Origin: Acidimicrobiales bacterium
GTDB taxonomy: Bacteria; Actinomycetota; Acidimicrobiia; Acidimicrobiales; Ilumatobacteraceae
Direction of reading: 5' to 3'
Length of the DNA: 64,000 bases
Assembly: GCA_038203385.1 (NCBI GenBank)
Contig: JBBREA010000001.1
Span: 25,196 to 89,195 of the forward strand
Both the position numbers and the translations under genes were made by a program. The notes beneath the pieces are model-generated. The model was given only the letters and a program-made list of their open reading frames with translations. It ran no database searches and was not told the origin of the DNA. Below, piece after piece: positions 25,296 through 54,203 of this stretch; the first letter of the stretch is position 1; each line of letters starts with the position of its first letter.

Positions 25296-25780
25296 GTCGA
25301 ACACTCCTTGTTGGAACAAACTCTGGCGGCGACTTGCCACCTCATGTTCATGACCTTCACGAACTCCTTGTCACAAAGAATCGAAAGACGGGCATCCTTG
25401 GATCGTTTGGTACGCAGTGACGTGGCGAACAAGAACTCGGTCGCGGCGGGAGGCATCGACAGCGGCTGCCTCGCGACGTGGACTCATGCCCGAACGTCTC
25501 TCACATCGACGCTCCGCGCGACGTCGGCCATGATGAAGCGGACGTCCGAAGCTGAGCAACACGTGCCCAGTGTCTGGCTGACTTCGCCGCGTTCCACTCG
25601 GGGACGGTGTTCACGTCTATACCTCCCGGGGTATGATGAAGCATCATCTGCGAGGAGACGCGTTCATGACGAAATGCCAGCAAGGGCTAAACGATGTCGC
25701 TTGGAGTTCGATCGCCGGATGTTCGCGGCATCGGCCGCTCGCGTCGAAGGTCGAGTTCGCATCGTGGGCGGCCGTTCGTG

Positions 25781-27157
25781 ATGCCTGAGATTGTCACGAT
25801 CGAGACCAAGTCGCTGGGCGACCGGAGCTACCTGGTGAGCGACGGCGAGGTGGCTGCCGTCATTGATCCCCAGCGCGACATCGACCGTGTGCTGGCCGTC
25901 GTAGAGCGCCTCGGTGTTCGGATCACTCACGTGTTCGAGACACATGTCCACAACGATTACGTGACCGGCGGGCTCGCGCTGGCCCGAGCAGTCGGGGCCG
26001 CCTACGTGTTGTCAGCTGCCGAGCACGTCGACTTCGATCATGTTGGCGTCGAGGACGACGACGAGATCCCCGTCGGGTGTTTCGTCGTTCGCGCTGTGCA
26101 CACGCCGGGGCACACACCGCATCACATGTCCTATGTGATCAGCGAGGCCGGACGTCCCTGCGCGGTGTTCACCGGCGGATCGATGTTGTATGGCACCGTC
26201 GGGCGTACTGATCTGATCGCCGATGAACAGACCGAGGAGCTGACGAGGGCGCAGTTCCGCTCGGTGCGGCGACTCGCAGCGGAGTTGCCTGACGATGTCG
26301 CGGTTCAACCGACCCACGGATTCGGCAGCTTCTGCTCGTCGACCGAGTCAAGTGGTACCGACGAGAGCACTATTGCCGTCGAGCGAACGACCAACGTCGC
26401 GCTCACCGTCGACGACGAAGACCGCTTCGTCGACACGCTGATGTCGGGCCTCACCGCCTACCCGCGCTACTACACCCACATGGGGCCCCGCAACCGGCAA
26501 GGCCCAACGGCGTCCGACCTGTCACCACCGACGCCGGTCGATCCGGTCGAGTTGCGCCGCCGCATCCACGCCGGCGACTGGGTAATCGACCTCCGCACTC
26601 GACAGGCATTCGCCCACTCCCACCTGGCCGGTACCATCAATGTCGCCCTGGACGACAAGTTCATCACCTACCTCGGCTGGACGATCCCCTGGGGCACACC
26701 GGTCACGCTGGTCGGCGACACAGCCGACGAGGTCGCAGTTGCGCAGCGCGACCTGGCCCGGATCGGAATCGACCGACCCACCGGAGCGGCGACCGGCGGC
26801 GTCCACGAGTGGGCAGCGGGCGGGGAGTTGCGTTCATATCGGAGGGCGACATTCGTCGAGCTGGCCCAAGAGATCGACCGCAAGGAGGTCGTGGTCCTTG
26901 ACGTCCGCCGCGGCGACGAGTGGTCCACAGGCCATCTCAGCGGAGCCGTTCACGTGCCACTCGATCGGCTCGAGGACCGACTGAGCGAGATACCTGACGG
27001 GCAGGTCTGGGTGCATTGCGCATCCGGTTACCGGGCCTCGATCGCCGCCTCGCTCCTCGACCGGGCCGGCCGCCGGGTCGTGCTGATCGACGACGACTGG
27101 ACATCCGTTCAACACCAACCCGGCCTTGCGGTGGCCGGGAAACCGCCGAGTCCGTAA
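25781..27157 (+). CDS. MBL-fold hydrolase with rhodanese domains (persulfide dioxygenase-sulfurtransferase-like)
   Basis: ETHVHNDY, HTPGHTPHH, PTHGFGSFC, C-terminal rhodanese HCASGYRA. Confidence 0.9.
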   Translation: MPEIVTIETKSLGDRSYLVSDGEVAAVIDPQRDIDRVLAVVERLGVRITHVFETHVHNDYVTGGLALARAVGAAYVLSAAEHVDFDHVGVEDDDEIPVGCFVVRAVHTPGHTPHHMSYVISEAGRPCAVFTGGSMLYGTVGRTDLIADEQTEELTRAQFRSVRRLAAELPDDVAVQPTHGFGSFCSSTESSGTDESTIAVERTTNVALTVDDEDRFVDTLMSGLTAYPRYYTHMGPRNRQGPTASDLSPPTPVDPVELRRRIHAGDWVIDLRTRQAFAHSHLAGTINVALDDKFITYLGWTIPWGTPVTLVGDTADEVAVAQRDLARIGIDRPTGAATGGVHEWAAGGELRSYRRATFVELAQEIDRKEVVVLDVRRGDEWSTGHLSGAVHVPLDRLEDRLSEIPDGQVWVHCASGYRASIAASLLDRAGRRVVLIDDDWTSVQHQPGLAVAGKPPSP

Positions 27158-27178
27158 CATCAACAAGGAGTATCAACC

Positions 27179-27574
27179 ATGGAATACGCATTGAGCATCG
27201 ACCTGGATCTTCCCCACGGGGAAGCCGTCGTCAAGGTCAAAGAAGCGTTCGCGGCGCAGGGTTTCGGCATACTCACCGAAATCGACGTACAGGCCACACT
27301 CAAGACCAAGACCGGTGTCGATATCGAGCCGTATCTGATCCTCGGCGCCTGCAACCCCCAACTCGCCCAGCAGGCCCTCGAAATCGAACGCCAAATCGGC
27401 CTGCTACTTCCCTGCAACGTCGTCGTGCGCACCGGCGACGGGTGCACGATCGTCGAAGCCCTCGACGCCAAGGTCATCTCGGAAATCCCAGACCGCGACG
27501 AACTCGTACCAGTCGCCCAAGAAGCTGGTCGACTGATCCGCGCCGCGCTCGACAGCCTCACGCAACAGCCGTGA
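27179..27574 (+). CDS. DUF302 domain protein
   Basis: GFGILTEID, ILGACNP, LLLPCNVVV. Confidence 0.9.
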   Translation: MEYALSIDLDLPHGEAVVKVKEAFAAQGFGILTEIDVQATLKTKTGVDIEPYLILGACNPQLAQQALEIERQIGLLLPCNVVVRTGDGCTIVEALDAKVISEIPDRDELVPVAQEAGRLIRAALDSLTQQP

Positions 27575-27844
27575 AGCACGCGCCCTCGAAACTCAAGCGA
27601 ACGCCGGGTCCGGGAACGTCTCGTCTCGAAACCTTCCGCAGAAACGGTCACTGAATCGCGTTGGGCACCGGCCTGGCGCGGTCGTACGCCGTCGGCGCGG
27701 TGCCGCACAACGGGTCGTCGACCCAGCGACGCGATCGTGACCAACAAAGGTGGGCACCAGAGTGCTTACCGTGGCGTGTGCCGCAACGCTCACGGGATTC
27801 TCGGCGGCCCGGTCACGTTCGCGCAGGACGTGACGTCATCCGTG

Positions 27845-28459
27845 TCAGTGCTCGCGCGTGCATGCTGCGATGAAGGCGTCGAGGGCATCGATCGTCGGGG
27901 TGACGCTGATCTCGCCGTTGCTGTTCGAGATGGACAGACCCGGGCTGAACACATTGCGGTCAGCGCAGAAGAAATGTGGCGAACCTTCCACATCGCGGGT
28001 CTGGCCATCCGTCCAATCCTGCAAAACGTCGTCGCGTTGGGACGGACCCGGTGAGCCCAGTCCGAACTCCGTTGCGATGTCGCCGAGTACCGCAGCGTCG
28101 CTCACATCACCGCCGTCGAGGAACAACGCCTTGCGCAACGCAAGGCTGACTTGCTCGCCAACCTCGTCACTGTGGCGATAGGCCAGTGCTGCCAGATCGA
28201 GCGCCGGCAGTGTTGTTGACGGGAGCCGCTGCGCATCGAACCCGGCGAACAGTGACGAGTCAACCTGGGCCTGCAAGGCGGCCACTTCGTCAGCGATCTT
28301 TCCTGGGTCGGTCGGTCCATCGTTGACCAGTTCCAACGGCCACGCTCGGGTCCTGATGCGCACGTCTTTGCCGAGCAGGGTTCGCCGGCTCGCCAGCTGG
28401 TGGAGCTGGACGTAGGCGAACGGGCAAGAGATGTCGGCAAACACTTCGATCATCGGCAT
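27845..28459 (-). CDS. DsbA/FrnE-like thioredoxin-fold protein
   Basis: DISCPFAY, GSPHFF. Confidence 0.85.
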   Translation of the reverse strand: MPMIEVFADISCPFAYVQLHQLASRRTLLGKDVRIRTRAWPLELVNDGPTDPGKIADEVAALQAQVDSSLFAGFDAQRLPSTTLPALDLAALAYRHSDEVGEQVSLALRKALFLDGGDVSDAAVLGDIATEFGLGSPGPSQRDDVLQDWTDGQTRDVEGSPHFFCADRNVFSPGLSISNSNGEISVTPTIDALDAFIAACTREH

Positions 28460-29489: not shown

Positions 29490-30248
29490 ATGAAGCTTGG
29501 GATCGTGGGCAAGGGCGGAGTCGGCAAGACGACGCTGTCGGCGTTGATCGCGGAGGAATTCGTGCGTCGGGGAAAGCGAGTCGTGGCGATCGACACCGAT
29601 TCCAATCCGAACCTCGGCATGTCACTCGGTCTCGAAGCAGGAGAGGTCGATGCGATGCCGGTCGTACCGCGCCGCCTTGCGCTGGGCGCAGACGGCGGGA
29701 TGAGCGGAGCAGAATTCCTCGCCGAATACGGCCGGCCCACGCCGGCGGGAGTCACGCTCGTGTCGGCAATGCGGGTCGACCAAGCGGGCGGCGGTTGAAC
29801 GTGTGGCAACCATGCTGCCGTGCGCAGCATGCTCGACAACCTGATGACTGACGACACCGACATCACGCTCGTGGACATGGAAGCCGGCTTGGAACACCTC
29901 AGCCGCTCCGGCGGAACGCTCGCCTATGCAGACGTGCTGGTCATGGTGATGGAACCAAGCCGCAAGTCCGTGCTCACCGCCGCGCGAACCGCTGCACTGG
30001 CGGACGAGCTCGGGATTCCGCGAACGCTCGCTGTCGGGAACAAGGCTCGCCCGGATGACGAGCAGTTCTTCGCCGACGCGTGCGCCGAGCACGGGGTCGA
30101 GCTCGCGGCGATCGTCCCCCTCGACGATGCGGTCACGACCGCCGATCGCAACGGAATCAGCGTTACGCAAGTGGGGGCGGACGCGGCTCGCCAGGCGGTG
30201 ATCCGGCTCGTCAACCACCTTGAATCACTGGAGGCGACGGTCTCCTAG
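29490..30248 (+). CDS. CooC-like nickel-insertion ATPase, predicted selenoprotein (Sec at codon 103, GGG-U-T-C)
   Basis: GKGGVGKTT, IDTDSNPNL, then in-frame TGA 29796-29798 continuing TCGNHAAV...VDMEAGLEHLSR. The two track ORFs are in the same frame. SECIS-like hairpin follows. Confidence 0.85.
29811..29831 (+). promoter_or_regulatory. Bacterial SECIS-like hairpin
   Basis: CATGCTGC-CGTGC-GCAGCATG: perfect 8-bp stem starting 12 nt after the UGA, with GU in the loop. Confidence 0.75.
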
Positions 30249-30973
30249 CCGGCCAAGAGGAGGGCGGCGAGGCCGCCGAGTGCGCACACGGCAGGCGCCT
30301 CGGGATCTGCGTCGAGCGGCGCACGATCTGCACGGTCGGCTGTGGGGATCGCGTCGTCCTCCGGCACGAAAAGCACCACGCGCCCATCAAGTGCTTTCTC
30401 CACTGCGATGCGGTCGACGTCGTCGACCATCCGGTTGGCGACGATGACGATCGGGCCCGACGTGTGCTCCGCAGCGAGCACAGCCGCCCTCGACGCGACC
30501 TCGAGCGACTTCACGGTCGGATCCGTCACGACGACGATTGCGTCGACGCGAGTCTCGCCGAGTCGGGTGAGCGTTCCCGTTCCGGCTTCGAAGTCGGCTA
30601 CGACGATCGTGTCCTCATCGATGTCGAGTCCGAGCAACTGCTCGGGGGAGACCCCGCATCAAGGGCAACCGTGGTCGGGGTCCTCGATTTTGGAGACCAT
30701 CGCCAGGCGGACTCCGTCTGGAGCGTCGGCGCCGAAGCGGTCGATGATCTCTTGCCAGGACCGAGCGTGCTCGACGTCGTCGCCGACCCCGTCGCGCAGC
30801 GAGAGCAGAGCCTCGGTCGCTGCCAGGCCCACTCCGAGCGACAATCCGAGGTTTGGATTGGTGTCACAGTCGAGGGCGACCACCCTGTGACCGGTCCTCG
30901 CGAGGGTGCGGGCGAGGATGGCAGATGTCGTCGTCTTGCCTGCACCGCCCTTGCCGACTACGGCGATCTTCAC
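30245..30973 (-). CDS. CooC-like ATPase, predicted selenoprotein (Sec at codon 105, C-P-U-C)
   Basis: GKGGAGKTT, LDCDTNPNL, HGCP-TGA(30661-30659)-CGVSPEQLL...ADFEAG. Track ORFs 30659-30973 and 30245-30637 are in frame. Confidence 0.83.
30626..30654 (-). promoter_or_regulatory. Bacterial SECIS-like hairpin
   Basis: Minus strand CCGAGC-AGTT-GCTCGG starting 13 nt after the UGA, G at loop position 2 followed by U. Possible lower stem GGGTC/GACTC. Confidence 0.72.
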
Positions 30974-31731
30974 GGCGACTCCCTTCTCAAAGTGTCGACC
31001 AGGGATCGTATCGCATCGACCGCCGGCGAACCCGGGGCGTAGTCGAGCAATGGCACCCCGGCTCGCTCGGCAGCCGCGACCTCACGGTCACGGGGCACGA
31101 CGCCGACGACGCGCAGGCCGCTGAATTCCGCCAGACGCGTCGCGTCTGGCGTACCGATCGCTTTGTTCGCGATCGCCACAACCCGTTGACCGCTGCCGCC
31201 GGGGGCCGCAAGCCGCGCGAGTCGGCGCGCCGACAGCATCGACGAGGGAGTGGCCTCGGCCACCACCACCAACATGTCAGCGAAGCCGGCCCATCCGAAG
31301 AACGCCTGCCGGGTGCCGCCCGGGAGGTCCCCCACGAGGTGCAGGTCGGTCGTCTCGGCAAGTGCGCGCACGATGAGCCGGAAACCCTGCTGCGCCGGAC
31401 CGACGGAGCGAACATGACCGCGCGGCTTGCCGAATTGCAAGAGTCGAACACCGTCAGGTCCCTCGGCCGCGTACGCATCGATCGCCTCGATCCCCATCAT
31501 CCCGCCCCGGAGTTGCCACTCGCTGTCAGGACCGTTTCCGATCTTCTCGGCGAGATCCGCCGGGAGGGCAGTGTCGGTGCTCGGGACGCCGAGGGAGATC
31601 GCGAGGCCAGGCAGTGGGTCGCTGTCGATCGCGACGACTCCACGATCGTCGGTTCGTGCGAGTAGACGACAGAACGAGCCGGCGATCACCGACTTGCCTG
31701 CACCTCCCTTGCCGACAAACGCGATTCGCAT
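30970..31731 (-). CDS. CooC-like ATPase lacking the CxC motif
   Basis: MRIAFVGKGGAGKS, IDSDPLPGL, GPDGVRLLQFGK. GHVRS replaces the Cys motif and GDLPGG occupies the switch region. Confidence 0.8.
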   Translation of the reverse strand: MRIAFVGKGGAGKSVIAGSFCRLLARTDDRGVVAIDSDPLPGLAISLGVPSTDTALPADLAEKIGNGPDSEWQLRGGMMGIEAIDAYAAEGPDGVRLLQFGKPRGHVRSVGPAQQGFRLIVRALAETTDLHLVGDLPGGTRQAFFGWAGFADMLVVVAEATPSSMLSARRLARLAAPGGSGQRVVAIANKAIGTPDATRLAEFSGLRVVGVVPRDREVAAAERAGVPLLDYAPGSPAVDAIRSLVDTLRRESP

Positions 31732-31754: not shown

Positions 31755-34040
31755 TCAGCACGTCGCAGCCGCGATCGCGGCCTGACCGATGCTGATGCCT
31801 CCGTCGTTCGGCGGGACCCGGCGGTGGACGAGGACCTCCAAGCCCGCATCGACGACGGCGCTCTCGACGAGCGATGTCAGCATCGCGTTCTGGAACACGC
31901 CTCCGGTGAGCGCCACGGTCTGCAACCGCTCCCGGCGGGCGATGACGATCGCCGCTCGGGCGAGCCCGCTGGCCAGGCGCCTGTGGAAGTCGATGGCGAT
32001 CTCGGGCGCCGATCGCCCTGCGATCCGGCCCGCCAAGGCATCGGCGACGAGCGCCGATGGGTCAAGCACCCATGGGCGGTCCGCATCCGGCTCCCCGATC
32101 CAGGTCCCGTCCACCGACGGAGCAGAACGCTCTTCGACGTAAGCGCTGGCGGCCGCCTCGAGTTCGACCGCAGCCTGTCCCTCGTAGCTCACCGTTGGGC
32201 GGAAGCCGGCGAGCGCGGCGATCGCGTCGAACAATCGGCCGCCGCTCGAGGTCATCGCGGTAGCACGGTGGTCGGACAGGGAGAGCACCGCTCGCCACCG
32301 AGGGTCGAGAGTCGGGCCGAGGTGGGCTGCGGCATCCGGACCGGAGGCGACGGCGACCCACGCAAGGGCCATCCGCCACGGCTCGCGAATCGCGACCGAT
32401 CCGCCCGGCAGCGGAACGGGACGCAAGTGACCGACCCGCCTGGATTCGCGAAGGTCCGCCACCAAGAGCTCGCCTCCCCACAGGCTGCCGTCCGATCCCA
32501 TCCCGAGCCCGTCGAACGCGACGCCGAGCACGGGTCCCGTCCGGCCGTGATCGACGAGGCATGACGCCACGTGCGCGTGATGGTGTTGAACGCCGAGAAC
32601 GTGCCTATCGGAATCAACAGCCCACTTCGTCGACAAGTACTCGGGATGGAGATCGTGGACAACCACCTCAGGGTCGATGCCCGTGAGCTCGACGAGATGA
32701 GCGATCGCCTGCTCGAACGCCGCGTACGCGGCGGGGTGCTCCAGGTCGCCGAGATGGTGGCTGGCGACGATCTGATCACCGGCAGCGACGGCGACGGTGT
32801 TCTTCAGCTCGGCACCGACAGCGAGGATCCTGAGCACAGCCGGGCTCGGCAGTCGCAACGACTCCGGCGCATACCCACGCGAGCGGCGCACGAGCTGCGC
32901 CCGCCCACCGACGGCGCGCACCACCGAGTCATCGCAGCGGATCTCGATCGGCCGGTCGTGGTGCAAGAAGCCGTCACAGAGGTGTGTGAGGTGCGCTCGG
33001 GCCATGTCGATGCCGGCGGCGATCGGCTCGTGGGTGCGGTTGCCGCTGGTCATCACGAGCGGGCGGCCGACTCCCTCGAGGAGGAGGTGATGAAGCGGGC
33101 TGTACGCCATCATCACGCCGACATCGGGCAACCCCGGCGCGACGCCGGTTGCGATGGTCGTGTGCCTGCGGCGGCGCGCAATCACGATCGGCCGCCGCTG
33201 AGAGGTCAGCTCTGCGCGACCAGAGTGGTCGAGCGTGACGAGTGCCGAGGCCTCCTCCGCAGATGCGACCATCACAGCGAAGGGCTTGTCGTCTCGTGCC
33301 TTTCGTTTGCGCAGGCGGTCAACGGCGGCGGCGTCGTCCGCAATGACCGCCAAGTGATAGCCGCCGAGTCCTTTCACGGCGACGATTTCTCCCTCGAGCA
33401 GGGACGAGATTGCAGCAGCGAGCGCGTGTTCTCCGCTCAACGAGGTGCGAATCTCACCGGCGCGTTCCCACATCAGCGTCGGTCCGCAGGCGGGGCAAGC
33501 GATCGGCTCGGCGTGGAACCGCCGGTCGGCGGGGTCGTCGTACTCCGCGCGACAGGAAACACACAGGGGAAATCCGGCCATCGTGGTGCTGGCGCGGTCG
33601 TACGGGAGCGAGCGGATGATCGTGTATCGCGGCCCGCAGTCAGCACAGTTGGTGAACGGGTAACGAAAGCGGCGCGCCAACGGATCACGCATCTCCTGAA
33701 GGCACGCTTCACAGGTCGCCACGTCAACGGGCACTGCCAGCGCCGGGCCGGTGCCCGCCGTACTCGGTACCACATCGAAGCCGCGCAACCCGTCGGCTGC
33801 GATCTCGGCGATCTCGATGAGATTGATTCGCGCCAGAGCGGGCGGCATTCGGTGGAGACGCTCGACGAAGGCGTCCAGCGGCGCGGATTCTCCTTCGATC
33901 TCGATGATCAGCCGATCCCGTTCGTTACCTGCCCAACCGTCGAGGCCGAGCTCACGAGCCTGACGTACCGCCCACGGTCGGAACCCGACGCCCTGCACCG
34001 CGCCGTCGACGACGACCCTTCGGCGGAGCCGCGGGCCCAT
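31755..34040 (-). CDS. hypF: Carbamoyltransferase HypF
   Basis: VQGVGFRP acylphosphatase domain, CxxC zinc fingers, KGLGGYHL, HHHAH, PPNDGGISIGQ. Confidence 0.95.
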   Translation of the reverse strand: MGPRLRRRVVVDGAVQGVGFRPWAVRQARELGLDGWAGNERDRLIIEIEGESAPLDAFVERLHRMPPALARINLIEIAEIAADGLRGFDVVPSTAGTGPALAVPVDVATCEACLQEMRDPLARRFRYPFTNCADCGPRYTIIRSLPYDRASTTMAGFPLCVSCRAEYDDPADRRFHAEPIACPACGPTLMWERAGEIRTSLSGEHALAAAISSLLEGEIVAVKGLGGYHLAVIADDAAAVDRLRKRKARDDKPFAVMVASAEEASALVTLDHSGRAELTSQRRPIVIARRRRHTTIATGVAPGLPDVGVMMAYSPLHHLLLEGVGRPLVMTSGNRTHEPIAAGIDMARAHLTHLCDGFLHHDRPIEIRCDDSVVRAVGGRAQLVRRSRGYAPESLRLPSPAVLRILAVGAELKNTVAVAAGDQIVASHHLGDLEHPAAYAAFEQAIAHLVELTGIDPEVVVHDLHPEYLSTKWAVDSDRHVLGVQHHHAHVASCLVDHGRTGPVLGVAFDGLGMGSDGSLWGGELLVADLRESRRVGHLRPVPLPGGSVAIREPWRMALAWVAVASGPDAAAHLGPTLDPRWRAVLSLSDHRATAMTSSGGRLFDAIAALAGFRPTVSYEGQAAVELEAAASAYVEERSAPSVDGTWIGEPDADRPWVLDPSALVADALAGRIAGRSAPEIAIDFHRRLASGLARAAIVIARRERLQTVALTGGVFQNAMLTSLVESAVVDAGLEVLVHRRVPPNDGGISIGQAAIAAATC

Positions 34041-35131
34041 CAGCAGATGCGCGGCAGGGGGTCGCCGACGAGGAGATCGACGATCCGTGCCCCACCGAAG
34101 GCGGTCGTCATCGTGACCATGCCAGGAGGCTCCGAGGTCACCTCGCCGATCACGGCGGCACCGCGCCCGAGGGGGTGAGCGCTCATGGCGGCAAGCGCAG
34201 CGCCGGTCTGATTCGGCGGGACGATCGCCACGAGGCGCCCTTCGTTGGCGACGTACAGCGGATCGATGCCGAGCAGCTCGCACGCCGCCCTGACCTCTGG
34301 TCGCACCGGGAGAGCGGCCTCGTCCAGCACGACGCCGCAGGCAGCCGCCACTGCGAGCTCGTTCACAGCGCTGGCCACGCCGCCCCGCGTCGGATCACGC
34401 AGCCAACGGGTCTGGGGTGCAGCAGTCATCAACACCTCCACGAGTCCGTTGAGGGCGGCGGTGTCGGACCGAACGTCGGCCTCGATCGCAAGATCCCCTC
34501 TGGCGAGCATGATCGCGATCCCGTGGTCACCGATCGATCCGGAGACGATCACGCAATCTCCTGGGCGGACGAGCTCATGGGACAGGCGGCGCCCTTGCGG
34601 GACGACGCCGACTCCGGTGGTGGTGATGAACAGCCGATCCGCGGCGCCCCGCGGCACGACCTTGGTGTCACCGGCGACGATCTCCACCCCGGCGATGGAG
34701 GCGGCCGCCGCCATGTCGGCCACGAAACCGCGCAGTTCGTCGACGGCGAGGCCCTCCTCGAGGACAAAGGCTGCGCTGATCCACGACGGCTGCGCGCCGA
34801 CCATCGCCAGGTCGTTCACCGTCCCGTTGATGGCGAGATCGCCGATCGAGCCGCCAGGAAAGCGCTGCGGTGTCACGACGTACGAGTCGGTGGTGATCGC
34901 GACGCGCTCACCGCCGATCTCGACCACCGCGGCGTCGTCCATCCGCCTCAGCACAGGATTCGCGAACGCGTCGAGGAACACCGCGTCGATCAGCGCAGCC
35001 GATGCTTTGCCACCGGCGCCGTGGGCCGTGGTGACGTGGGAGTCGGTGAGTCGCGGTCGTCGGCGGCGGAACTTCTCGATTCTGGCCTGAACTGCAGCCT
35101 CGCGATCTGCAGTGCCGTCCCCGGCGGTCAT
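34040..35131 (-). CDS. hypE: Hydrogenase maturation protein HypE
   Basis: HGAGG, GDTKVV, RDPTRGG, C-terminal LPRIC. Confidence 0.96.
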   Translation of the reverse strand: MTAGDGTADREAAVQARIEKFRRRRPRLTDSHVTTAHGAGGKASAALIDAVFLDAFANPVLRRMDDAAVVEIGGERVAITTDSYVVTPQRFPGGSIGDLAINGTVNDLAMVGAQPSWISAAFVLEEGLAVDELRGFVADMAAAASIAGVEIVAGDTKVVPRGAADRLFITTTGVGVVPQGRRLSHELVRPGDCVIVSGSIGDHGIAIMLARGDLAIEADVRSDTAALNGLVEVLMTAAPQTRWLRDPTRGGVASAVNELAVAAACGVVLDEAALPVRPEVRAACELLGIDPLYVANEGRLVAIVPPNQTGAALAAMSAHPLGRGAAVIGEVTSEPPGMVTMTTAFGGARIVDLLVGDPLPRIC

Positions 35132-36252
35132 CCGGCGGTGACCGGAATCCGACCCCGGCCAGCGAAGCGGCCGAAGTTGTAGTAGGCGGCGCACGCGCCC
35201 TCGGACGAAACCATGCAGGTGCCGATGGGCGTCTCCGGGGTGCATCCCGTGCCGAACACCTTGCACTCCCACGGTTTGATGACGCCCTTCAGGACTTCCC
35301 CGCACTGGCAAGCCTTTGGATCCGCGACGCGCACTCCCGGGATCTCGAATCGATCCTCGGCGTCCCATGCAGCGAACTCGGGACGAAGTTTCAGCGCACT
35401 CTGCGAGATGAATCCAAGGCCTCGCCACTCGAAGTGCGGCCGCAGCTCGAACACCTCACGCAGCACTGCAATCGCTCGCGAGTTGCCCTGCTCACGCACG
35501 CACCGGATGTATTGGTTCTCCACCTCGCAACGGCCCTCCGCGATCTGGCGCAGCAGCATGACGATCGCCTGGAGGATGTCGAGTGGCTCGAAGCCAGCCG
35601 TGACGAGCGGCTTGCCGTACTGCGCGGGCACGAAGCGGAACGGCGCGTTGCCGACAACTGTGGCCACGTGTCCCGGACCGAGGAAGCCGTCCAAGCGGAG
35701 GTCGGGAGATCCGAGTATCGCCCGCAGCGGGGGAACGATCGTCACATGGTTGGAGAAGACCGAAAAATTTGCGACCCTCGCCTCGCGAGCTCGGAGGAGC
35801 GTCAAGGCGGTGGACGGCGCAGTGGTCTCGAATCCGACGGCGAAGAACACGACCTCGCGGTCAGGGTTGCGCTCGGCCAGTTGCAGCGCGTCCATCGGCG
35901 AGTACACCATCCGCACGTCGGCCCCGTGCGCCTTCGCCTCGAGCAGCGTGCCCGAACCGCCCGGCACGCGCATCATGTCGCCGAAACTCGTGAATATCAC
36001 CCCAGGCTGCTGGGCGACGGCGATCGCGTCGTCCACCCGTCCCATCGGGATGACGCACACCGGGCATCCGGGCCCGTGGACGAGCTCGACGTTCTCGGGC
36101 AAGAGACCCTCGATCCCGTGCCGGTAAATGGTGTGAGTGTGCCCGCCGCACACCTCCATGAAAGCGAGCGGGGTGCTACCCGCAAGGAGGTAAATCTCGG
36201 TGAGCACCGCTTGCGCCGCCACCGGATCGCGAAACTCGTCGACGAACCTCAC
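35128..36252 (-). CDS. hypD: Hydrogenase maturation protein HypD
   Basis: MEVCGGHTH, GPGCPVC, GFETT, CMVSSEGACAA. Confidence 0.96.
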   Translation of the reverse strand: MRFVDEFRDPVAAQAVLTEIYLLAGSTPLAFMEVCGGHTHTIYRHGIEGLLPENVELVHGPGCPVCVIPMGRVDDAIAVAQQPGVIFTSFGDMMRVPGGSGTLLEAKAHGADVRMVYSPMDALQLAERNPDREVVFFAVGFETTAPSTALTLLRAREARVANFSVFSNHVTIVPPLRAILGSPDLRLDGFLGPGHVATVVGNAPFRFVPAQYGKPLVTAGFEPLDILQAIVMLLRQIAEGRCEVENQYIRCVREQGNSRAIAVLREVFELRPHFEWRGLGFISQSALKLRPEFAAWDAEDRFEIPGVRVADPKACQCGEVLKGVIKPWECKVFGTGCTPETPIGTCMVSSEGACAAYYNFGRFAGRGRIPVTAG

Positions 36253-36896
36253 GACGGCCCAGGTCGTTCGAGGTGAGTGCTGATCAGCGCCACGAGCTTT
36301 GCTGCGACGGCGGTCTGCGCCTCCTGGATTCGGTGCACGGAGTCGGAGTCGATGCACAGACAATGATCCACGCGCGTCCGCAACGCACCGCCTCCGTAGC
36401 CGGCGATGGCGATCGTGAGGATCCCTCCGCGGCGCGCGTGGTCCACCGCGGCAAGGACGTTCGCCGAGCCCCCGCTCGTCGAGAACGCGATGACGACGTC
36501 GCCCGGGCGCCCGTGGGCTGCGAGTTGGCGAGCGAAGATCACGTCAATTCCTATGTCGTTGGCGAGCGCAGTCAGCACAGCCGGCTCTGCGGCAAGCGAG
36601 ATAGCCGGCAGCGAACGGGGTGCGGCGGCATCGCACATCCGCACGAACGCGGAGGCGTCGGTAGCGCTCCCCCCGTTGCCCAACGCGAGAATCCGACCGC
36701 CTGCGCGCACACGGCCTGCGGCAGGGATGGCGGCTTGCGTGAGCTCCGCCTCGAGCTCGACGAGAGTTCGCTGCCTGAGAGTTCGGCTTTCGTCCCACTT
36801 CGCCGCCGCCGAACGTCCGAGGTCGGCCAGCACCTCCGCAGGATCGCGAGCGGTCTCGCCGAGGAACGGATAGAGGAAACCTGTGTCCTCAACCAC
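36249..36896 (-). CDS. SIS-domain (GmhA-like) protein in the hyp operon
   Basis: GNGGSATDA, TALAND, FSTSGGSAN, HRIQEAQ. Confidence 0.88.
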   Translation of the reverse strand: MVEDTGFLYPFLGETARDPAEVLADLGRSAAAKWDESRTLRQRTLVELEAELTQAAIPAAGRVRAGGRILALGNGGSATDASAFVRMCDAAAPRSLPAISLAAEPAVLTALANDIGIDVIFARQLAAHGRPGDVVIAFSTSGGSANVLAAVDHARRGGILTIAIAGYGGGALRTRVDHCLCIDSDSVHRIQEAQTAVAAKLVALISTHLERPGPS

Positions 36897-37584
36897 GAGT
36901 GGCTCCGAGGATCACGGGCGCTTCCAACCGTTTGATCGCGACACCTGCGTGCACAATGACCAGATCGCCCGACTGACACGGCTCCACGAGGGTCAGGTCG
37001 ATGTGACGGCGGAGGCCGGCCACGATGACCGTGGAGTCGAATCCCGCGGTCGCGACGTCGACCTCGCCGAGCTCGCCTGCATCCATGCAGGCGGGACACG
37101 TCGAAGCCTCGGCGGCACCGTCGAGTAGGTCGGGTTGCTCGGAGCACACGTGGGTGAGCTCCCACAGCAGGTGGTAGGCGCAGACGATGTCAGCATGGTC
37201 GGCCGCCGCGCCGAGCCACACCACGTTCGCGCCTGTATCGATGGTCGGCCGCTCGCCGTGAGCGAGCAGGATCGCGCCGATACCCCACGCTGGGGCGCGC
37301 CCGACAACGTCGAGGAGTCCGGCGTCGTCTCCGGACCCGATTGCGACGAGGACGTCACCGGGCCGTGCGGAGTGCCGTAGACGAGCGGCTGCACCGTCGG
37401 GTGCCAACACGATCGCGGGTCGGGCGCGCTTGCCGACGATCACCGGGTGCACGAACTCCACCGCAAGGTGCTCGGCGTGGGTGGGCCACGCCGGCGACCA
37501 GCACCACAGAGTCGCCCCCCGATGGAAATGACGCGCAAGGACGAGCGACGCAGACGCGAGCGCATCATGTGGTGCAGCGGTCAC
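36889..37584 (-). CDS. Degenerate SIS domain fused to a CxxC-HypC/HupF-like domain
   Basis: HLAVEFVHPVIVGKRA...YHLLWELTHVC, then CPAC and GDLVIVHAGVAI. Confidence 0.75.
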   Translation of the reverse strand: MTAAPHDALASASLVLARHFHRGATLWCWSPAWPTHAEHLAVEFVHPVIVGKRARPAIVLAPDGAAARLRHSARPGDVLVAIGSGDDAGLLDVVGRAPAWGIGAILLAHGERPTIDTGANVVWLGAAADHADIVCAYHLLWELTHVCSEQPDLLDGAAEASTCPACMDAGELGEVDVATAGFDSTVIVAGLRRHIDLTLVEPCQSGDLVIVHAGVAIKRLEAPVILGATRG

Positions 37585-37859
37585 GGCGATGAGCCTTGCT
37601 CCATCTGCGCGATCTCCTCGTCGTAGACGGAACCCAGCATCTTGATGAAGTCCAGCGTGCGCTTCGCCTCGTCCTCGTCGATCTTCGCCATTGCGAATCC
37701 GACGTGGATCAGCACCCAGTCTCCGACACCGATCCCACCCTCGTCACCGGCAACCAGTTCGACGTTGACCTCGCGCCGCACGCCATCCACTTCCGCCACG
37801 GCCTGGTGCGGTCGCGCTGGATCGTAGACGACTATCTGGCCGGGGAGCCCGAGGCACAT
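37581..37859 (-). CDS. hypC: Hydrogenase chaperone HypC
   Basis: MCLGLPGQI, GDWVLIHVGFAM. Confidence 0.96.
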   Translation of the reverse strand: MCLGLPGQIVVYDPARPHQAVAEVDGVRREVNVELVAGDEGGIGVGDWVLIHVGFAMAKIDEDEAKRTLDFIKMLGSVYDEEIAQMEQGSSP

Positions 37860-38632
37860 CAGCGAACCCCTGTTCTCGCGGCGAGAACCGCATCGAGCAC
37901 TCGGCCCACAGCGACGGACACGGGCCCGGCGGGGTCGGCGTCGAGCAGGGGGCGAGCCGTGCGGTCGGCGTCGATCACGGCATCCGAAAACGGGACTTCA
38001 CCGAGGCGGGCCAGCCCATGGCGATCGCAGAACTCTGCCACGGCTTCACTGTCGGCCACCGAGCGAACCTTGTTCGCGACTACGACCGTGCGCGTGGATG
38101 GCAGCTCGGCGGCGAGGTCGGCCAGTCGACGCGTCGCTTCCAGAGAGCGGTAGTACGGCTCGGTGACGAGCACAAGCACGTCCGCGAATCGAGCAGTGCC
38201 GCGGCTCACATGCTCGGGAGACGCCTCGAGGTCGACGACCGTGAGCGTTTCTGGTTGTGTCTCGCCGAGTTCTGCGAGCACCGCACTGACGGCAGCGTGT
38301 GCAGAGCACAGACAGCCCTCACCGGCATGCGCTGGCGCACCCATGAGGAGCAGACGCACGCCGTCCGGTGCGACGGTGCCGTGCGCGGCAAACACCTCGT
38401 CGACCGACACGGTGAGACTGGGCCCGGTGAGCTTGCGCGAAACGGACGAGGCCGGGATTCCCGCGAGTCCAGCCGCAAGAGCGGGGGCCACTCCGAGCGC
38501 GGCGGCGATGTTCGGGTTGCTGTCGGCATCGATCGCGACGACGTTCATGCCTCGACGCGCGGCGAGGCGAGCCAGCGTGGCCGCGATCGTCGTCTTGCCG
38601 GCACCGCCCTTTCCCGCCAACGCAACCCTCAC
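37859..38632 (-). CDS. CooC-like nickel-insertion ATPase with canonical Cys motif
   Basis: GKGGAGKTT, IDADSNPN, GEGCLCSAH, VDLEASPEHVSRG. Confidence 0.88.
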   Translation of the reverse strand: MRVALAGKGGAGKTTIAATLARLAARRGMNVVAIDADSNPNIAAALGVAPALAAGLAGIPASSVSRKLTGPSLTVSVDEVFAAHGTVAPDGVRLLLMGAPAHAGEGCLCSAHAAVSAVLAELGETQPETLTVVDLEASPEHVSRGTARFADVLVLVTEPYYRSLEATRRLADLAAELPSTRTVVVANKVRSVADSEAVAEFCDRHGLARLGEVPFSDAVIDADRTARPLLDADPAGPVSVAVGRVLDAVLAARTGVR

Positions 38633-38985
38633 GATGATCCGAGGACGCGCGTCGCCCTGTCGACGAGCTCGCCGAGTAGTCCGACCGTCGACTCGATCTC
38701 CGCCACCTCAACCGCGAGCGCAGCACGTCCTTCGGGGGTGAGCGCGTAGGTGCGTCGCGGCGGCCCCGACGATGAAATCTCCCACCACGACTCGAGCGAT
38801 CCCTGCTGCTCCATCGACCGCAACATGCGGTAGAGCCCTCCGGTGTCGATCGCGATCAAACCCAAACCCGGCAGCTGTTCGAGCAACTCATACCCGTGAG
38901 ATGGACCTGGCGCGACGAGCACGAGAAGAGTGGTGCGCAGGTACGACCTGGGAAGCTTGCGTTCGGTGAATCTGCCCTCCATCAT
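38629..38985 (-). CDS. PadR-family transcriptional regulator
   Basis: HGYEL, GGLYRMLRSME, GPPRRTYALTPEG. Confidence 0.9.
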   Translation of the reverse strand: MMEGRFTERKLPRSYLRTTLLVLVAPGPSHGYELLEQLPGLGLIAIDTGGLYRMLRSMEQQGSLESWWEISSSGPPRRTYALTPEGRAALAVEVAEIESTVGLLGELVDRATRVLGSS

Positions 38986-39383
38986 CGGTTCCCATCATGC
39001 TCATGGCCATGGCCGCGACGTTGGGCCACACAGGCGTCTGACTCGTCGACCGACATGTGACACCAACAGTCGTCACTGCACTCGCCGTGGGTGGGTCGCA
39101 TCAGTTCGTCGAAGGACAGGGCGAACTCAACTCCGCCCTCCTCCAGCCCGCGCTCGGACAGCGTGTACCAAGTGCCATCGCGGTGGAGGTACTCCTCCTC
39201 GACGAGTCGGTCGAGATAGGAGATGCCGTTCGTTGCGTCGACGCCGAGGAAGCGTTCGATCAGCGGCGGGTCGACGAGATCCCCGAAACCCTCGCCGCGC
39301 AGCCAGTACATCACCTGAAGGATCTCGCTACGCCAGTACATGGCGCGCAGCGCCTCGCTCTTCGGCGGCTGAAGCTCAGACAT
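38982..39383 (-). CDS. Hypothetical winged-helix-like protein with Cys/His-rich C-terminal tail
   Basis: WRSEILQVMYWLRGEG, tail HGECSDDCWCH...C...HGHEH. Confidence 0.75.
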   Translation of the reverse strand: MSELQPPKSEALRAMYWRSEILQVMYWLRGEGFGDLVDPPLIERFLGVDATNGISYLDRLVEEEYLHRDGTWYTLSERGLEEGGVEFALSFDELMRPTHGECSDDCWCHMSVDESDACVAQRRGHGHEHDGNR

Positions 39384-39672
39384 GAGGCGCGGCGGTCGAG
39401 GGTCCTGTCGACGCAGCGGCGGCGGCACCCTCCGCAAGCCCCGCTACGCCGTCGAGGGCGGCCGCGATGACGGTCAGCTGTTGGTTGATGCGGGTGACCG
39501 ACGGTCCGATCGTCTCGCACTGCGTCTCGATGGCGCGGACCCCGAACGTCACCTTGCCGAGCAGATCGCTGGTTGCCCGCAGCGAACGGCCGATACGCGC
39601 AAGGTACACGGCGAGCGCGCCGATGACGAGAGCGATCTCCATGACGGTGGCGATGATGAGCAGCGTGCGCAC
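39376..39672 (-). CDS. Short single-TM hydrogenase-associated protein
   Basis: N-terminal TM and helical tail. LGKVTFGVRAI shared with 53931-54194. Confidence 0.75.
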   Translation of the reverse strand: MRTLLIIATVMEIALVIGALAVYLARIGRSLRATSDLLGKVTFGVRAIETQCETIGPSVTRINQQLTVIAAALDGVAGLAEGAAAAASTGPSTAAPHV

Positions 39673-39673
39673 G

Positions 39674-39928
39674 TCAGCTCTGCTCCCGGAGGAACGCGTC
39701 GTGGCGGAGTGCCTCGGCGGTCAGCGAGTCGAGTTTGTCGGATGTGGTGTGCAAGAGCCAGGTCGTCGCTGTGTTGCGGGCGACGGCCTTGCCAGCACCC
39801 CAGATGGCCTCGGCCCCGTGTTCGATCCGACGTACGTGGTTGAGGAAGATCTGGAGCAGGACGACCGCGACGACCGCTACCACGAGACCGAGACCGAGGG
39901 TGATCGCCCAATACCCGTTCGTCGACAT
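39674..39928 (-). CDS. Short single-TM hydrogenase-associated protein
   Basis: TM WAITLGLGLVVAVVAVVLL and amphipathic tail. Translationally coupled. Confidence 0.75.
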   Translation of the reverse strand: MSTNGYWAITLGLGLVVAVVAVVLLQIFLNHVRRIEHGAEAIWGAGKAVARNTATTWLLHTTSDKLDSLTAEALRHDAFLREQS

Positions 39929-40207: not shown

Positions 40208-40277
40208 TAGATGCAATATACACCGACCGGCCCGCCGACGATGCACCGGAGAACCCAATAGGTGTATCTTGCACCTA
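40208..40277. promoter_or_regulatory. Pair of inverted 17-bp operator-like sites in the divergent hydrogenase promoter
   Basis: tagatgcaatatacacc (40208-40224) vs ggtgtatcttgcaccta (40261-40277) match 15/17 as inverted copies. Each contains GTGTA-N3-TGCAY. Confidence 0.55.
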
Positions 40278-40301
40278 GACGCACGATGGAGGGGGTTTCC
40301 G

Positions 40302-41651
40302 ATGTCCCAGGATGGCGACGGCCAGCCCGAACCGGTCGACGCACCGACCGCAGGGCAACCACACGGAACTGGCGCTGGTCCCGACCACGCTGGCGGTGTT
40401 TCCACCGACTCGCCGGCAACGGCGGGCGAGCCCGTCTCACTCGGCCAGGGCGGCGCGATGCCCGGCGGCGCGGAGATGGACCAATGGGAGTCCTCCAGCA
40501 TCGATCCGCTGGCGCCGATCGCGATCCGCAGCCGGTCGATGGTCGAGCCAGATGACACGTTGCGCATCGGCCCGCTGCGCAAGATCTATCTCATCTGGCT
40601 CGTCGGCGCATCGTGTGACGGTTGCACGGTCGCCGTGTCGGGCGCGACGCACCCGCGCGTCGAGCACCTCCTCGCAGGGATCATCCCGGGGCTTCCGCGC
40701 GTGGAGATCATCCACACCGTCTTGTCCGTCGAGTCTGGCGCGGAGTGGGTTGCAAATCTGTTCATGGCAGAGGCCGGCGAGCTCGACGCCCCCTACGTGA
40801 TCACATGGGAGGGATCGGTGATGGACGAGACCCTCTCCGGCGACGGCTACTGGATGGGCCTCGGCGAGGACCCCGAGACGGGGCGCCAGATCACCAGCCT
40901 CGAGTGGCTCGATCGCCTGGCACCGGGCGCTGCGGCGGTGATCGCCATCGGCACCTGTGCGACGTGGGGCGGAATCCCGGCGGCGAAGGGCAACCCGACC
41001 AACGCGATGGGGGTGATGGACCACCTCGGCAAGGACTACGTCTCCGCGCTGGGAGTGCCGGTGGTCAACGTCCCCGGCTGTGCCCCGGTGGGCGACAACT
41101 ACCTGGAGACGGCAGCGGCGGTGCTGCTGTTCTTGAACGGGATCGCACCGCTACCGGAATTCGACGAGCTCGGGCGACCGGCGTGGCTGTTCGGCGAGAC
41201 GGTCCATCGGCACTGCCCCCGCGCCGGCTACTACGAGGAGGGCGTGTTCGCCGAGGCGTATGGCGACAAGGAGTGCCTGGTCGAGCTCGGCTGCTGGGGG
41301 CCCGTGGTTCAGTGCAACATCGCCGAGCGAGGCATGCTCGACGGACACGGCGGCTGCATGCAGATGGGCGGGATTTGCATCGGGTGCACCATGCCGGGTT
41401 TCCCCGACAAGTTCTCGCCGTTTTACGAGGCACCCCCAGGTGCCATGTTGTCGAGTACGACGAGCAGGGTCACCGGCGGGTTCATCCGGCGAATGCGCGA
41501 GGTGAGCCAGGCCGACAAGAACATGTCTGCGCGCTGGGAAGACGACGCGCCAAGTGCATGGGCGCGCAACCGCACGGGGCCGCGGGGCGCCGTCAAGCTG
41601 CTGCACCGGTTCTATTCCAAGCATCAGCACTCGAAAGAGTCCTACAACTAA
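40302..41651 (+). CDS. [NiFe]-hydrogenase small subunit (no Tat signal)
   Basis: SCDGC, GTCATWGGIP, PGCAP, HRHC, CLVELGC, GGICIGCTMPGFPD. GGAGG RBS. Confidence 0.93.
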   Translation: MSQDGDGQPEPVDAPTAGQPHGTGAGPDHAGGVSTDSPATAGEPVSLGQGGAMPGGAEMDQWESSSIDPLAPIAIRSRSMVEPDDTLRIGPLRKIYLIWLVGASCDGCTVAVSGATHPRVEHLLAGIIPGLPRVEIIHTVLSVESGAEWVANLFMAEAGELDAPYVITWEGSVMDETLSGDGYWMGLGEDPETGRQITSLEWLDRLAPGAAAVIAIGTCATWGGIPAAKGNPTNAMGVMDHLGKDYVSALGVPVVNVPGCAPVGDNYLETAAAVLLFLNGIAPLPEFDELGRPAWLFGETVHRHCPRAGYYEEGVFAEAYGDKECLVELGCWGPVVQCNIAERGMLDGHGGCMQMGGICIGCTMPGFPDKFSPFYEAPPGAMLSSTTSRVTGGFIRRMREVSQADKNMSARWEDDAPSAWARNRTGPRGAVKLLHRFYSKHQHSKESYN

Positions 41652-41670
41652 CCCGGCCGGAGGGCTCACA

Positions 41671-43551
41671 ATGTGCTTCAAGAACCTGCCCATCGAGTTC
41701 GACCTCGACGGCAACGCCCGACTGCGAGACGGCATCGACGACCCGTACGCCGTGACGGTGGCTGCACCGAAGGAGTACGTGCGGCTGCCCGACGGCCCCG
41801 GGGCCACGTCGGCGGCGCCGCCACGTCTGCGCGACTGGAGCATCGACCCGGTGACGCGTGTCGCCGGCGCGCTGGCAGTGCACACCGTGCTCGATCTCGA
41901 CAAGCGCGAAGCGGTCGAGGCCCACTCCCAGGCGATGCTCTTCCGTGGGTACGAGGTGATCCTCAAGGGCCGAGACCCGCGCGACGCGATCGACATCAGC
42001 TCGCGGGCGTGTGGCGTGTGCGGTGGCGTCCACTCCACGGTCTCGGCGCTCGCGATCGAGCAGGCGTTCGGGATCTGTCCGCCTCCGCTCGGCGTCCTCG
42101 TTCGCAACCTCGGCGAGGTCGGGGAGATGTTCTACGACCATCCGCTCCATCTAGGTCTCCTCGCCGGGCCGGATTACTCCACCTCCATCGTCGCCGTCAC
42201 CAACCCCGAACTCGTCACGCTGGCCGAGCGCACGCCCGCCCGTCATGCCGACGTGCACGGGTTCAAGACGATGAAGGACCTCATGGATGCCCTCAACCCG
42301 TTGACGGGCAAGATCTACCTCGAGTCGCTCGAGTACACCCGCGTCGGCCGGATCATGTGCATGCAGATGTACGGAAAGTACCCGCATCCCTCGACGCTGG
42401 TCCCGGGTGGCGTGTCGACCACGATCAGCACGTCGTCGTTCAACGAGTACTACACCCAGCTCGGCAAGATCTTCGACTACTGCAAGGTCATGGCGGCCAC
42501 GTGGGACGACATCGCCGACTTTTTTCTCGAGGCGAACCCCGAGTACGAGCGGGTCGGCGCCCGACCCACCAACCTGATCCAGACCGGCATCTGGGACGAC
42601 CCGGAGGCGTACGACGCGACCTACGCGAACTGCAACGAGTGGGGCGACAAACGGTGGGCGCTGCCGGGGATCATCCTCGACGGCGAGCTGCGTACGACCC
42701 GATTGACAGACATCAACATGGGGGTCGAGGAGTTCGTCGAGCACTCCTACTACGACGACTGGACGGTCGGGACCACACCCCGGTTCGCCGCCGATCCGCT
42801 CGGCAACCCGATCTCGCCCTACCACGCCTGGAACAAGGAGACGATCCCCCGCCCGCAGGGCAAGAACTTCAAGGAGAAGTACAGCTGGGATTGCGCGCCG
42901 CGGTGGGACCGACAGGTGATGGAGACCGGCACCTACGGGCGGATGTGGACGACAGCGCTCGCCGGCCGCACCCCCGACAACCCGTTCCTCGAATCCACCG
43001 GCGACGGGCTGCGGATCGTCCTCCCCCGCCATGGGCTGCCCGAGATGGAGCTCAATTGGAAGGTCCCGCGGACGCTCAACGCCCTCGAGCGCAACCGTGG
43101 CCGTGCGTACGCAATGGGTTTCACCGCTGCGATCGGCATGAACTGCATCCTCAAGGCGTTCGAATACTGGCGCAACGGCGAGACGGCGGTCAGTGTGCCG
43201 TACAAGGTGCCCAAGGACGAGCGAGTGGCAGTGGGATTCTGGGAGGCCGGCCGCGGGTTCCTCACCCATCACCTACACATGGACGGTGGAAAGATCGTGA
43301 ACTACCAGATCAACACCCCATCCACGTGGAACGCCTCGCCGCGCGACCCCTTCGGCAACCCAGGCCCGTATGAGCAAGCGATCGTCGGAACCCCGATCTT
43401 GGAGAGCGTGAGCGACGAAAACGTGAAGGGGATCGACATCCTGCGCGCCATCCGCAGCTTCGACCCCTGCATGCCGTGCACCACGCACATGGATACCGGC
43501 AGAGGTGTCATTGTGCGTGAGGTGAACTCCTGCGGCTGCACGCTCGAATGA
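41671..43551 (+). CDS. [NiFe]-hydrogenase large subunit (group 1, probably 1l-like)
   Basis: IDPVTRVAG, L1 SRACGVCGGVH, L2 RSFDPCMPCTTH with a C-terminal extension. Confidence 0.95.
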   Translation: MCFKNLPIEFDLDGNARLRDGIDDPYAVTVAAPKEYVRLPDGPGATSAAPPRLRDWSIDPVTRVAGALAVHTVLDLDKREAVEAHSQAMLFRGYEVILKGRDPRDAIDISSRACGVCGGVHSTVSALAIEQAFGICPPPLGVLVRNLGEVGEMFYDHPLHLGLLAGPDYSTSIVAVTNPELVTLAERTPARHADVHGFKTMKDLMDALNPLTGKIYLESLEYTRVGRIMCMQMYGKYPHPSTLVPGGVSTTISTSSFNEYYTQLGKIFDYCKVMAATWDDIADFFLEANPEYERVGARPTNLIQTGIWDDPEAYDATYANCNEWGDKRWALPGIILDGELRTTRLTDINMGVEEFVEHSYYDDWTVGTTPRFAADPLGNPISPYHAWNKETIPRPQGKNFKEKYSWDCAPRWDRQVMETGTYGRMWTTALAGRTPDNPFLESTGDGLRIVLPRHGLPEMELNWKVPRTLNALERNRGRAYAMGFTAAIGMNCILKAFEYWRNGETAVSVPYKVPKDERVAVGFWEAGRGFLTHHLHMDGGKIVNYQINTPSTWNASPRDPFGNPGPYEQAIVGTPILESVSDENVKGIDILRAIRSFDPCMPCTTHMDTGRGVIVREVNSCGCTLE

Positions 43552-51809: not shown

Positions 51810-51822
51810 AGGGGACGACCGC

Positions 51823-53595: not shown

Positions 53596-53754
53596 AACTC
53601 TCCTTAACGGCCTGGTTGGTCAGCGCAGATTAACGAACCGTTCGGCGACACGTAAGTGCGTGAAACACCTACCGGCCGCGCAGCGTGCTTTGAATTCGAT
53701 TCGATTCAACGCGCAGGGCATGCTGACAACGCGGCTGGGCCACGCCCCGTCCCG

Positions 53755-54194: not shown

Positions 54195-54203
54195 GTTCGC
54201 CAA

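Follow-up and report, generated by a model that had tools for sequence, protein, structure and literature searches.

A probable selenocysteine-containing CooC-like ATPase encoded beside [NiFe]-hydrogenase maturation genes in an Acidimicrobiales genome

An in-frame UGA in a CooC-like ATPase gene

The stretch of DNA analyzed here, 64,000 nucleotides (nt) of contig JBBREA010000001.1 from an Acidimicrobiales bacterium (assembly GCA_038203385.1), is referred to below as the window. On its minus strand, at positions 30245 to 30973, lies a gene for a CooC-like ATPase with a UGA at codon 105 that would be read as selenocysteine (Sec); the evidence set out below makes it very probable that the gene encodes a genuine selenoprotein. 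From the GTG start codon at 30973 to the TAG stop codon at 30247-30245 there is one 242-codon frame with a single internal TGA (30659-30661), and the 242-amino-acid (aa) product is a P-loop ATPase of the MinD/CooC type. The start codon shares bases with the stop codon of the upstream gene, TGA (together GTGA), and is preceded by a Shine-Dalgarno-like stretch, AAGGGAG. The internal TGA stands in the context EDPDHG-C-P-U-C-G-V-SPEQLLG, after which the frame continues via DFEAG/ADFEAG to the C terminus; normal gene callers split the gene at this codon. A preliminary description of the locus had read HGCP-TGA-CGVSPEQLL in frame through ADFEAG to the C terminus, and every element that it reported was found in its place.

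Residues 7 to 14 of the protein form a deviant Walker A motif (GKGGAGKT), accompanied by a metal motif, G-C-P-U-C-G, and a switch motif, DFEAG. The protein falls within the CbiA/MinD/ParA nucleotide-binding family of Pfam (PF01656, 1.1e-13); none of the NCBIfam models scanned against it scored over cut-off, and no model covers the family. Its best match among solved structures is CooC1 of Carboxydothermus hydrogenoformans (3KJE, E = 1.5e-11), whose dimer coordinates one Zn or Ni at its interface through Cys112 and Cys114 of both monomers (PMC6006190), and the HMMER alignment to 3KJE sets C103-P-U105 against C112-Y-C114, pairing C103 with Cys112 and U105 with Cys114. By this alignment the predicted Sec is the second Cys of the CooC C-x-C metal site, with an extra Cys after it (C-P-U-C), which bears out the arrangement first described. 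Sec had also been said to occupy a different site than in the neighboring paralog, and it does: the paralog reads GGG-U-T-C, with its TGA at 29796-29798 on the plus strand. Nickel binding and ATP hydrolysis, as traits of the CooC family, are predicted.

An element of the selenocysteine insertion sequence (SECIS) type lies within the coding sequence at 30614-30658 (minus strand), with an apical hairpin at 30645-30630 and, in the family consensus, a weaker lower stem. In the window the hairpin consists of CCGAGC (30645-30640), an AGTT loop (30639-30636), and GCTCGG (30635-30630), forming a 6-bp stem that begins after an interval of exactly 13 nt from the A of the TGA, in agreement with the spacing given in the preliminary description. 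The latter was also right that the hairpin is unlike that of the paralog in sequence; the geometry, which it gave as the same, differs slightly, with a stem of 6 to 7 bp and a tetraloop here and an 8-bp stem and a 5-nt loop in the paralog.

Conservation of the UGA, the frame and the hairpin

Orthologs were read in 401 sampled genomes of the same order (Acidimicrobiales), two of them (G166 and G413) unpublished and needed for no claim made here, and in a scan of named genomes. The order sample contains 43 other genomes, from about 30 genera, with an ortholog at 50-80% identity, nearly all of them with one or two in-frame TGAs; the motif G/D-[C/U]-x-[U/C]-C-G is present in 30 of the 31 order-level loci read, with D for the leading G in L060. 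The scan of named genomes provided 79 loci, mostly from Acidimicrobiales metagenome-assembled genomes (MAGs) but also from Nitriliruptorales, Euzebyales, and Egibacteraceae, and one of them, L136, comes from a cultured organism, Pseudonocardia nigra DSM 104088, and is of the C-P-U-C form. Their motifs are U-x-U-C in 54, C-x-U-C in 12, and C-x-C-C in 11 (10 with a recognized motif plus L130); of the other two loci, L067 is CxU in a frameshifted assembly and L143 ends before the motif. In most relatives the first Cys of the metal site is also Sec. The C-x-C-C carriers comprise Amycolatopsis marina, Haloechinothrix, Actinophytocola, Iamia, Nocardioidaceae, an Ilumatobacteraceae MAG, an Acidimicrobiales MAG (L119), and L130. 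No U-x-C-C form occurs among the orthologs read; wherever any Sec is present, the second position is Sec. Across about 110 loci the position of codon 105 is filled solely by TGA or a Cys codon. The comparison of CPUC with CPCC orthologs that the preliminary description had proposed thus brought out C-x-U-C, U-x-U-C, and C-x-C-C forms, and Trp, Arg, or another non-Cys residue, which it had named as the observation that would speak against Sec, was found in none.

A maximum likelihood tree of 77 orthologs, rooted on the CxC paralog of the window, requires at least 11 changes among the UxU, CxU, and CxC states, which indicates that Sec and Cys have been exchanged repeatedly; the window gene lies within a well-supported CxU clade of four members. 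More than 100 full-length database homologs read GCPCCG or GCMCCG, and all come from gene callers that halt at TGA. Because such callers split or truncate these genes, and the full-length homologs in the protein database are all Cys forms, the family is systematically misannotated. A 242-aa database protein (P0012) considered as a homolog without the motif was rejected, since its DNA (L067, 6210-6926 of JAUJOW010000008.1) reads G-C-P-TGA-C-G, a CxU form, and has the hairpin; the assembly is a long-read one with homopolymer indels on either side of the TGA, and P0012 is a read of the shifted frame.

Immediately 3' of the UGA, the Cys, Gly, and Ser residues are invariant and are written with 2, 4, and 5 synonymous codons, respectively, the Ser codon switching between TCN and AGC among orthologs, and the ratio of nonsynonymous to synonymous substitution rates over the 137 codons that follow the TGA comes to 0.16 with one and 0.22 with the other of the two closest orthologs. 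Given these invariant residues with synonymous drift and the low ratio downstream, the frame is evidently conserved beyond the UGA and translation evidently continues through it. The TGA had been judged unlikely to be a random nonsense mutation, and its presence in about 66 species-level genomes, together with purifying selection downstream and the conserved hairpin, upholds that judgment.

The hairpin, with a stem of 6 to 7 bp and an AGUU loop, occurs in 66/66 Sec forms and in 0/11 Cys forms. The codons GAG CAG TTG CTC are identical in 62/62 distinct Sec sequences, a single CTT exception keeping a G-U pair, and all Cys forms differ at these four codons (CTG CTG, CAA CTG, TTG TTG, ATG CTC, and others); TTG is presumably a rare Leu codon in a genome of 65% G+C. 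In alignment A1, 96.5% of the cells of the seven-pair helix are paired, compared with 19-51% when the 3' partner is slid by 1 to 3 columns. Covariation, which the preliminary description had put forward as a check, is evident in compensatory changes at the flanking pairs (CG in 50, UG in 7, and UA in 5 sequences at one, and GC in 34 and CG in 12 at another), and 0/500 shuffles equal the alignment in pairing or in covariation score. The same hairpin is predicted by RNAalifold, along with the weaker lower stem, to which the GCGG right after the UGA gives rise. Judged from these alignments, the constraint at the RNA level is confined to the TGA forms. U-x-U-C genes have one UGA 19 nt and the other 13 nt ahead of a single hairpin, which appears to serve both; neither the alignment nor RNAalifold gave evidence of a second.

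Genomic setting and a predicted role in nickel delivery

The genome holds selA and selB side by side on contig C4 and selD on contig C3, all scoring over cut-off. It also encodes a canonical selenoprotein, an FdhA-like protein (contig C31, about 25466-26750, outside the window), whose gene has an in-frame TGA in CNRT-U-HAPS and a hairpin (GUGGUC/GGUCU/GGCCAC) 15 nt 3' of it, and all three SECIS candidates of the genome have G-U at loop positions 2 and 3. In the order sample selA is present in 39/40 genomes with a TGA form, the lone exception being 87% complete, against a background of 272/401; the genomes being related, we regard this association as supportive rather than as a formal test.

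Directly upstream of the selenoprotein gene lies the gene for a Cys-less paralog of 253 aa (30970-31731, minus strand), which ends in TGA and whose product has GKGGAGKS, lacks metal-binding Cys residues, and reads GDLPGGTRQ where its relatives have DxEAG. This paralog stands directly upstream of the ortholog in 78/79 loci, and its signature, comprising GKGGxGKS, GDLPGGTRQ, and a conserved Trp and Gln, is invariant. Its constant pairing with the Sec/Cys ATPase suggests a dedicated non-metal-binding subunit that is likely to be the partner of the latter. On the other side, and convergent, is the CooC-like paralog of the UxC type (29490-30248, plus strand), whose hairpin has an 8-bp stem and a CGUGC loop. 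Such a paralog is found within 6 kb in about 32/79 loci and has Cys (C-T-C or C-M-C) in all 28 motifs that could be read among the 32, those of the closest relatives included; the Sec states of the two families vary independently, and, among the loci compared, the window genome stands out by its Sec in both proteins. In view of this limited proximity and of the Cys carried there, the UxC/CxUC heterodimer with a mixed selenium/sulfur site suggested in the preliminary description is not a conserved design, and we do not favor it. In one relative (G033:C19, locus L027) the UxC-type paralog reads GGG-U-T-G and is without the second Cys.

The hydrogenase maturation genes hypF, hypE, hypD, and hypC, together with a SIS-domain gene, occupy 31755-37859 on the minus strand; a third CooC-like paralog with an ordinary C-L-C motif lies at 37883-38632 (minus strand), between padR and hypC; and the small and large subunits of a [NiFe]-hydrogenase, the presumed client of the chaperones, are encoded at 40269-43551 on the plus strand. 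The hydrogenase region of the window also contains a NifU-like gene in addition to padR. Further along, at 48144-54467 (minus strand), are genes for an ATP-binding cassette (ABC) transporter of the Opp/Nik type, with binding protein, permeases, and ATPases, and for two membrane proteins of about 100 aa.

HypB and HypA are the nickel delivery system of [NiFe]-hydrogenases, and archaeal HypB is an Mrp/MinD-type ATPase. Neither HypA nor HypB was found over cut-off in this genome; its best matches to the HypB model TIGR00073 reach 67.6 bits, against a cut-off of 121.2, and are located elsewhere, and none of the three ATPases scans as HypB. Five well-assembled genomes with a Sec ortholog (92-97% complete, two of them in a single contig) all have a [NiFe]-hydrogenase, and in 0/5 was HypA or HypB found over cut-off. 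The Ni-dependent CO dehydrogenase CooS (TIGR01702) was not found in the genome of the window. Among the 79 loci, hyp or hydrogenase genes lie within 6 kb of the ATPase genes in 38, and in 35 an Opp/Nik-type ABC transporter precedes the ATPase pair instead of hyp genes, also within 6 kb; two single-helix membrane proteins of about 100 aa follow the pair in about 50. The transporter and the small proteins are syntenic with the pair in many Acidimicrobiales (for example, L069:98-7497). Homologs of that transporter and of both small proteins make up the 48144-54467 region of the window, about 10 kb from the hydrogenase genes, and one of the small membrane proteins also has a weak match at 39451-39636, just upstream of them. 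This synteny of transporter and ATPase pair suggests an import-to-insertion nickel module tied to hydrogenase.

We suggest that SelB and tRNA-Sec would decode UGA-105, directed by the in-frame hairpin 13 nt downstream, and that Sec would replace the second Cys of a C-x-C metal site at the dimer interface. That Sec is inserted by such a hairpin-directed route at UGA-105 of a full-length CooC/MinD-type ATPase is, in our estimation, highly likely. The selenoprotein and the translationally coupled Cys-less paralog would together constitute an ATP-driven metallochaperone, the nickel probably being supplied by the linked Nik/Opp-type importer; the chaperone would insert nickel into the large subunit of the [NiFe]-hydrogenase, substituting for the absent HypA and HypB, and selenolate ligands may give tighter, faster-exchanging, and more oxidation-resistant binding of nickel in these aerobes. 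A role of the selenoprotein as a metal chaperone is probable, and we incline, by a narrow balance, toward delivery of nickel specifically to the hydrogenase. It is a more tentative proposition, to which we would give rather less than an even chance, that the Cys-less protein and the [C/U]-x-U-C protein form a heterodimeric, selenium-ligated nickel insertase, fed by a Nik-type importer, that replaces HypA/HypB for the O2-exposed uptake hydrogenases of aerobic Actinomycetota and for which most species decode two UGAs 6 nt apart from one minimal hairpin.

Alternative explanations and relation to known systems

A split gene, in which the TGA is a true stop, the C-terminal half restarts at the invariant TTG at 30637-30635, and the two halves reassemble, would account for the 130-aa open reading frame called from this TTG in the hairpin loop and for the fact that every TGA form has this TTG while the Cys forms vary there, as predicted for a conserved restart codon. 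The 7 to 9 codons from the TGA to the TTG would then be untranslated, yet Cys-Gly-(Leu/Val/Ile)-Ser-(Pro/Ala)-Glu-Gln is kept there with free synonymous change; moreover, a start codon does not explain the frozen GAG, CAG, and CTC codons or the covarying flanks, the break would divide the metal motif, and the presence of the TGA tracks that of selA. We consider a split gene highly improbable. The probability that the TGA marks a pseudogene, or a sequencing or assembly error in a decaying CooC paralog, is close to negligible: although standard gene callers split the gene and the assembly is a fragmented MAG, the same TGA recurs in about 66 species-level genomes of several orders, at 50-80% identity over the full length, with purifying selection downstream and a conserved hairpin. 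Recoding of the UGA to something other than Sec, whether through near-cognate read-through that yields Cys or Trp or through a SelB-like system that inserts Cys, is very unlikely. It would be in keeping with Cys as the alternative residue in homologs and with the failure to find a tRNA-Sec in this assembly, but it sits poorly with the presence of selA, selB, selD, and a canonical Sec-containing formate dehydrogenase, with the ordinary TCA-anticodon tRNA-Sec of a genome from the same genus, and with the G-U in the hairpin loop that matches the other two SECIS candidates of the genome. Genome-wide reassignment of TGA (codes 4 or 25) was rejected, as the genes for the Cys-less paralog and HypF both end in TGA.

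The alternative with the most substance, though we consider it less likely than not, is that the protein is a real selenoprotein with another role: it may be a chaperone or sensor that handles a different metal or serves a different client of the Nik/Opp-type transporter, or a carrier of Fe-S (or Fe-Se) clusters similar to Mrp/NBP35. Such relatives, and NifH, bridge Fe-S clusters at the same position of the dimer (PMC6006190). In 35/79 loci, moreover, the pair stands beside an ABC transporter without hyp genes within 6 kb, and the window has three other CooC-like paralogs that could cover nickel insertion. On the other hand, 5/5 well-assembled carriers have a [NiFe]-hydrogenase and lack HypA/HypB, the small membrane proteins of the transporter-type loci have homologs in the window that lie by an ABC transporter about 10 kb from the hydrogenase, one of them with the weak match just upstream of the hydrogenase genes, and the closest solved relative is the nickel-binding CooC1.

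Several points weigh against a nickel-delivering selenoprotein as we have outlined it. The functional assignment draws on gene neighborhood and homology, CooC proteins are known for CO dehydrogenase and not for hydrogenase, and in about one-third of the loci, many of them on short contigs, no hyp genes and no transporter are seen within 6 kb. The fold of the window hairpin as a single sequence is no better than those of shuffles (z = -0.64), so that the significance of the hairpin rests on comparative data, and its seventh pair is a C-A mismatch. In E. coli fdhF the spacing between UGA and hairpin is strict; the 13/19-nt spacing of the U-x-U-C genes is looser, and efficient decoding of both UGAs is putative. 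The compared genomes are mutually related, and the counts given above overstate their independence. Finally, searches with Rfam and ARAGORN and with blastn using the same-genus tRNA-Sec found no tRNA-Sec in the assembly, which is 88% complete and in 255 contigs; the complete same-genus genome has a normal tRNA-Sec of 92 nt with TCA as its anticodon, and tRNA-Sec also occurs in three other relatives.

An 89-nt "tRNA-Arg" reported by ARAGORN on contig C13 was considered as a tRNA-Sec candidate and set aside, as it looks like a false positive. On contig C106 (10956-10972, outside the window), about 110 nt from a contig end, an isolated stretch of 17 nt matches the 3' end of the same-genus tRNA-Sec exactly, with no tRNA body attached. 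This stretch may represent the distal att repeat of an element that integrated at selC, and such an element might explain why selC did not assemble.

Among characterized proteins the selenoprotein is closest to CooC1 (3KJE/3KJG/3KJH/3KJI) and the CooC/AcsF ATPases that insert nickel into Ni,Fe-CO dehydrogenase; it shares with CooC1 the GKGGxGKT Walker A motif and a C-x-C site at the same alignment position. In contrast to CooC1, it has Sec as the second Cys (relatives have Sec at both) and an invariant extra Cys (C/U-x-U-C-G), its context is [NiFe]-hydrogenase maturation and a Nik/Opp-type transporter in a genome with no Ni-dependent CO dehydrogenase found, and its coupling to a Cys-less paralog suggests that, in place of a symmetric homodimer, it forms a heterodimer whose metal site is asymmetric. 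With no CooS in the genome and with hyp and hydrogenase genes as neighbors, we regard the protein as CooC-like and not as a functional ortholog of CooC. The UxC-type paralog shares the fold family, the hydrogenase-cluster context, Sec in the metal loop, and a hairpin 12 to 13 nt after the UGA but is only about 35% identical, has Sec at the first Cys, no extra Cys, and no coupled Cys-less partner, and has a different hairpin sequence. HypA/HypB would perform the same presumed job, nucleotide-driven delivery of nickel to the hydrogenase large subunit, an equivalence that we infer; unlike them, the selenoprotein is not a G3E GTPase, has no HypA partner, and includes Sec among its predicted metal ligands.

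Neither a 2026 inventory of 119 prokaryotic selenoprotein families (PMC13188914) nor a 2022 review (PMC9312934) includes an ATPase of the CooC, MinD, ParA, or CbiA type or a U-x-U motif, and a search for literature linking selenoproteins with CooC returned only chance text matches, such as "cooccurrence." The nearest entries of the 2026 inventory are a CobW-related selenoprotein (NF041053, UxxC) and metal-binding double selenoproteins such as MbdU (PMC13188914). They set precedents for a putative metallochaperone NTPase containing Sec and for closely spaced pairs of Sec residues but belong to different folds and families. The ATPase would represent a new selenoprotein family, widespread in Actinomycetota, with a fold already known from CooC-like chaperones and with decoding by the established SelB/SECIS mechanism. 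If this is true, a family with one or two Sec residues joins a catalogue dominated by thiol oxidoreductases, and selenium would act in a chaperone as a metal ligand and not as a redox catalyst. It would link the use of selenium with nickel trafficking and with hydrogenase maturation for the consumption of H2 by aerobic soil and marine Actinomycetota, and it provides these lineages with a candidate for the HypA/HypB function missing from them. A natural test case of one bacterial SECIS serving two nearby UGAs may be found in the U-x-U forms, and the splitting or truncation of the genes by gene callers implies that MAG-based metabolic surveys systematically misannotate them.

Other features of the window were noted in passing. 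Four open reading frames of the hydrogenase cluster, at 43548-44045 and 44663-45130 on the plus strand and at 38982-39437 and 39674-39928 on the minus strand, have a coding-like composition and match nothing in Pfam at E <= 1e-4. The 25694-28459 region, a short way past the ATPase genes, encodes a metallo-beta-lactamase/rhodanese fusion, a DUF302 protein, and a DsbA-like protein, a group of sulfur- and thiol-handling functions.

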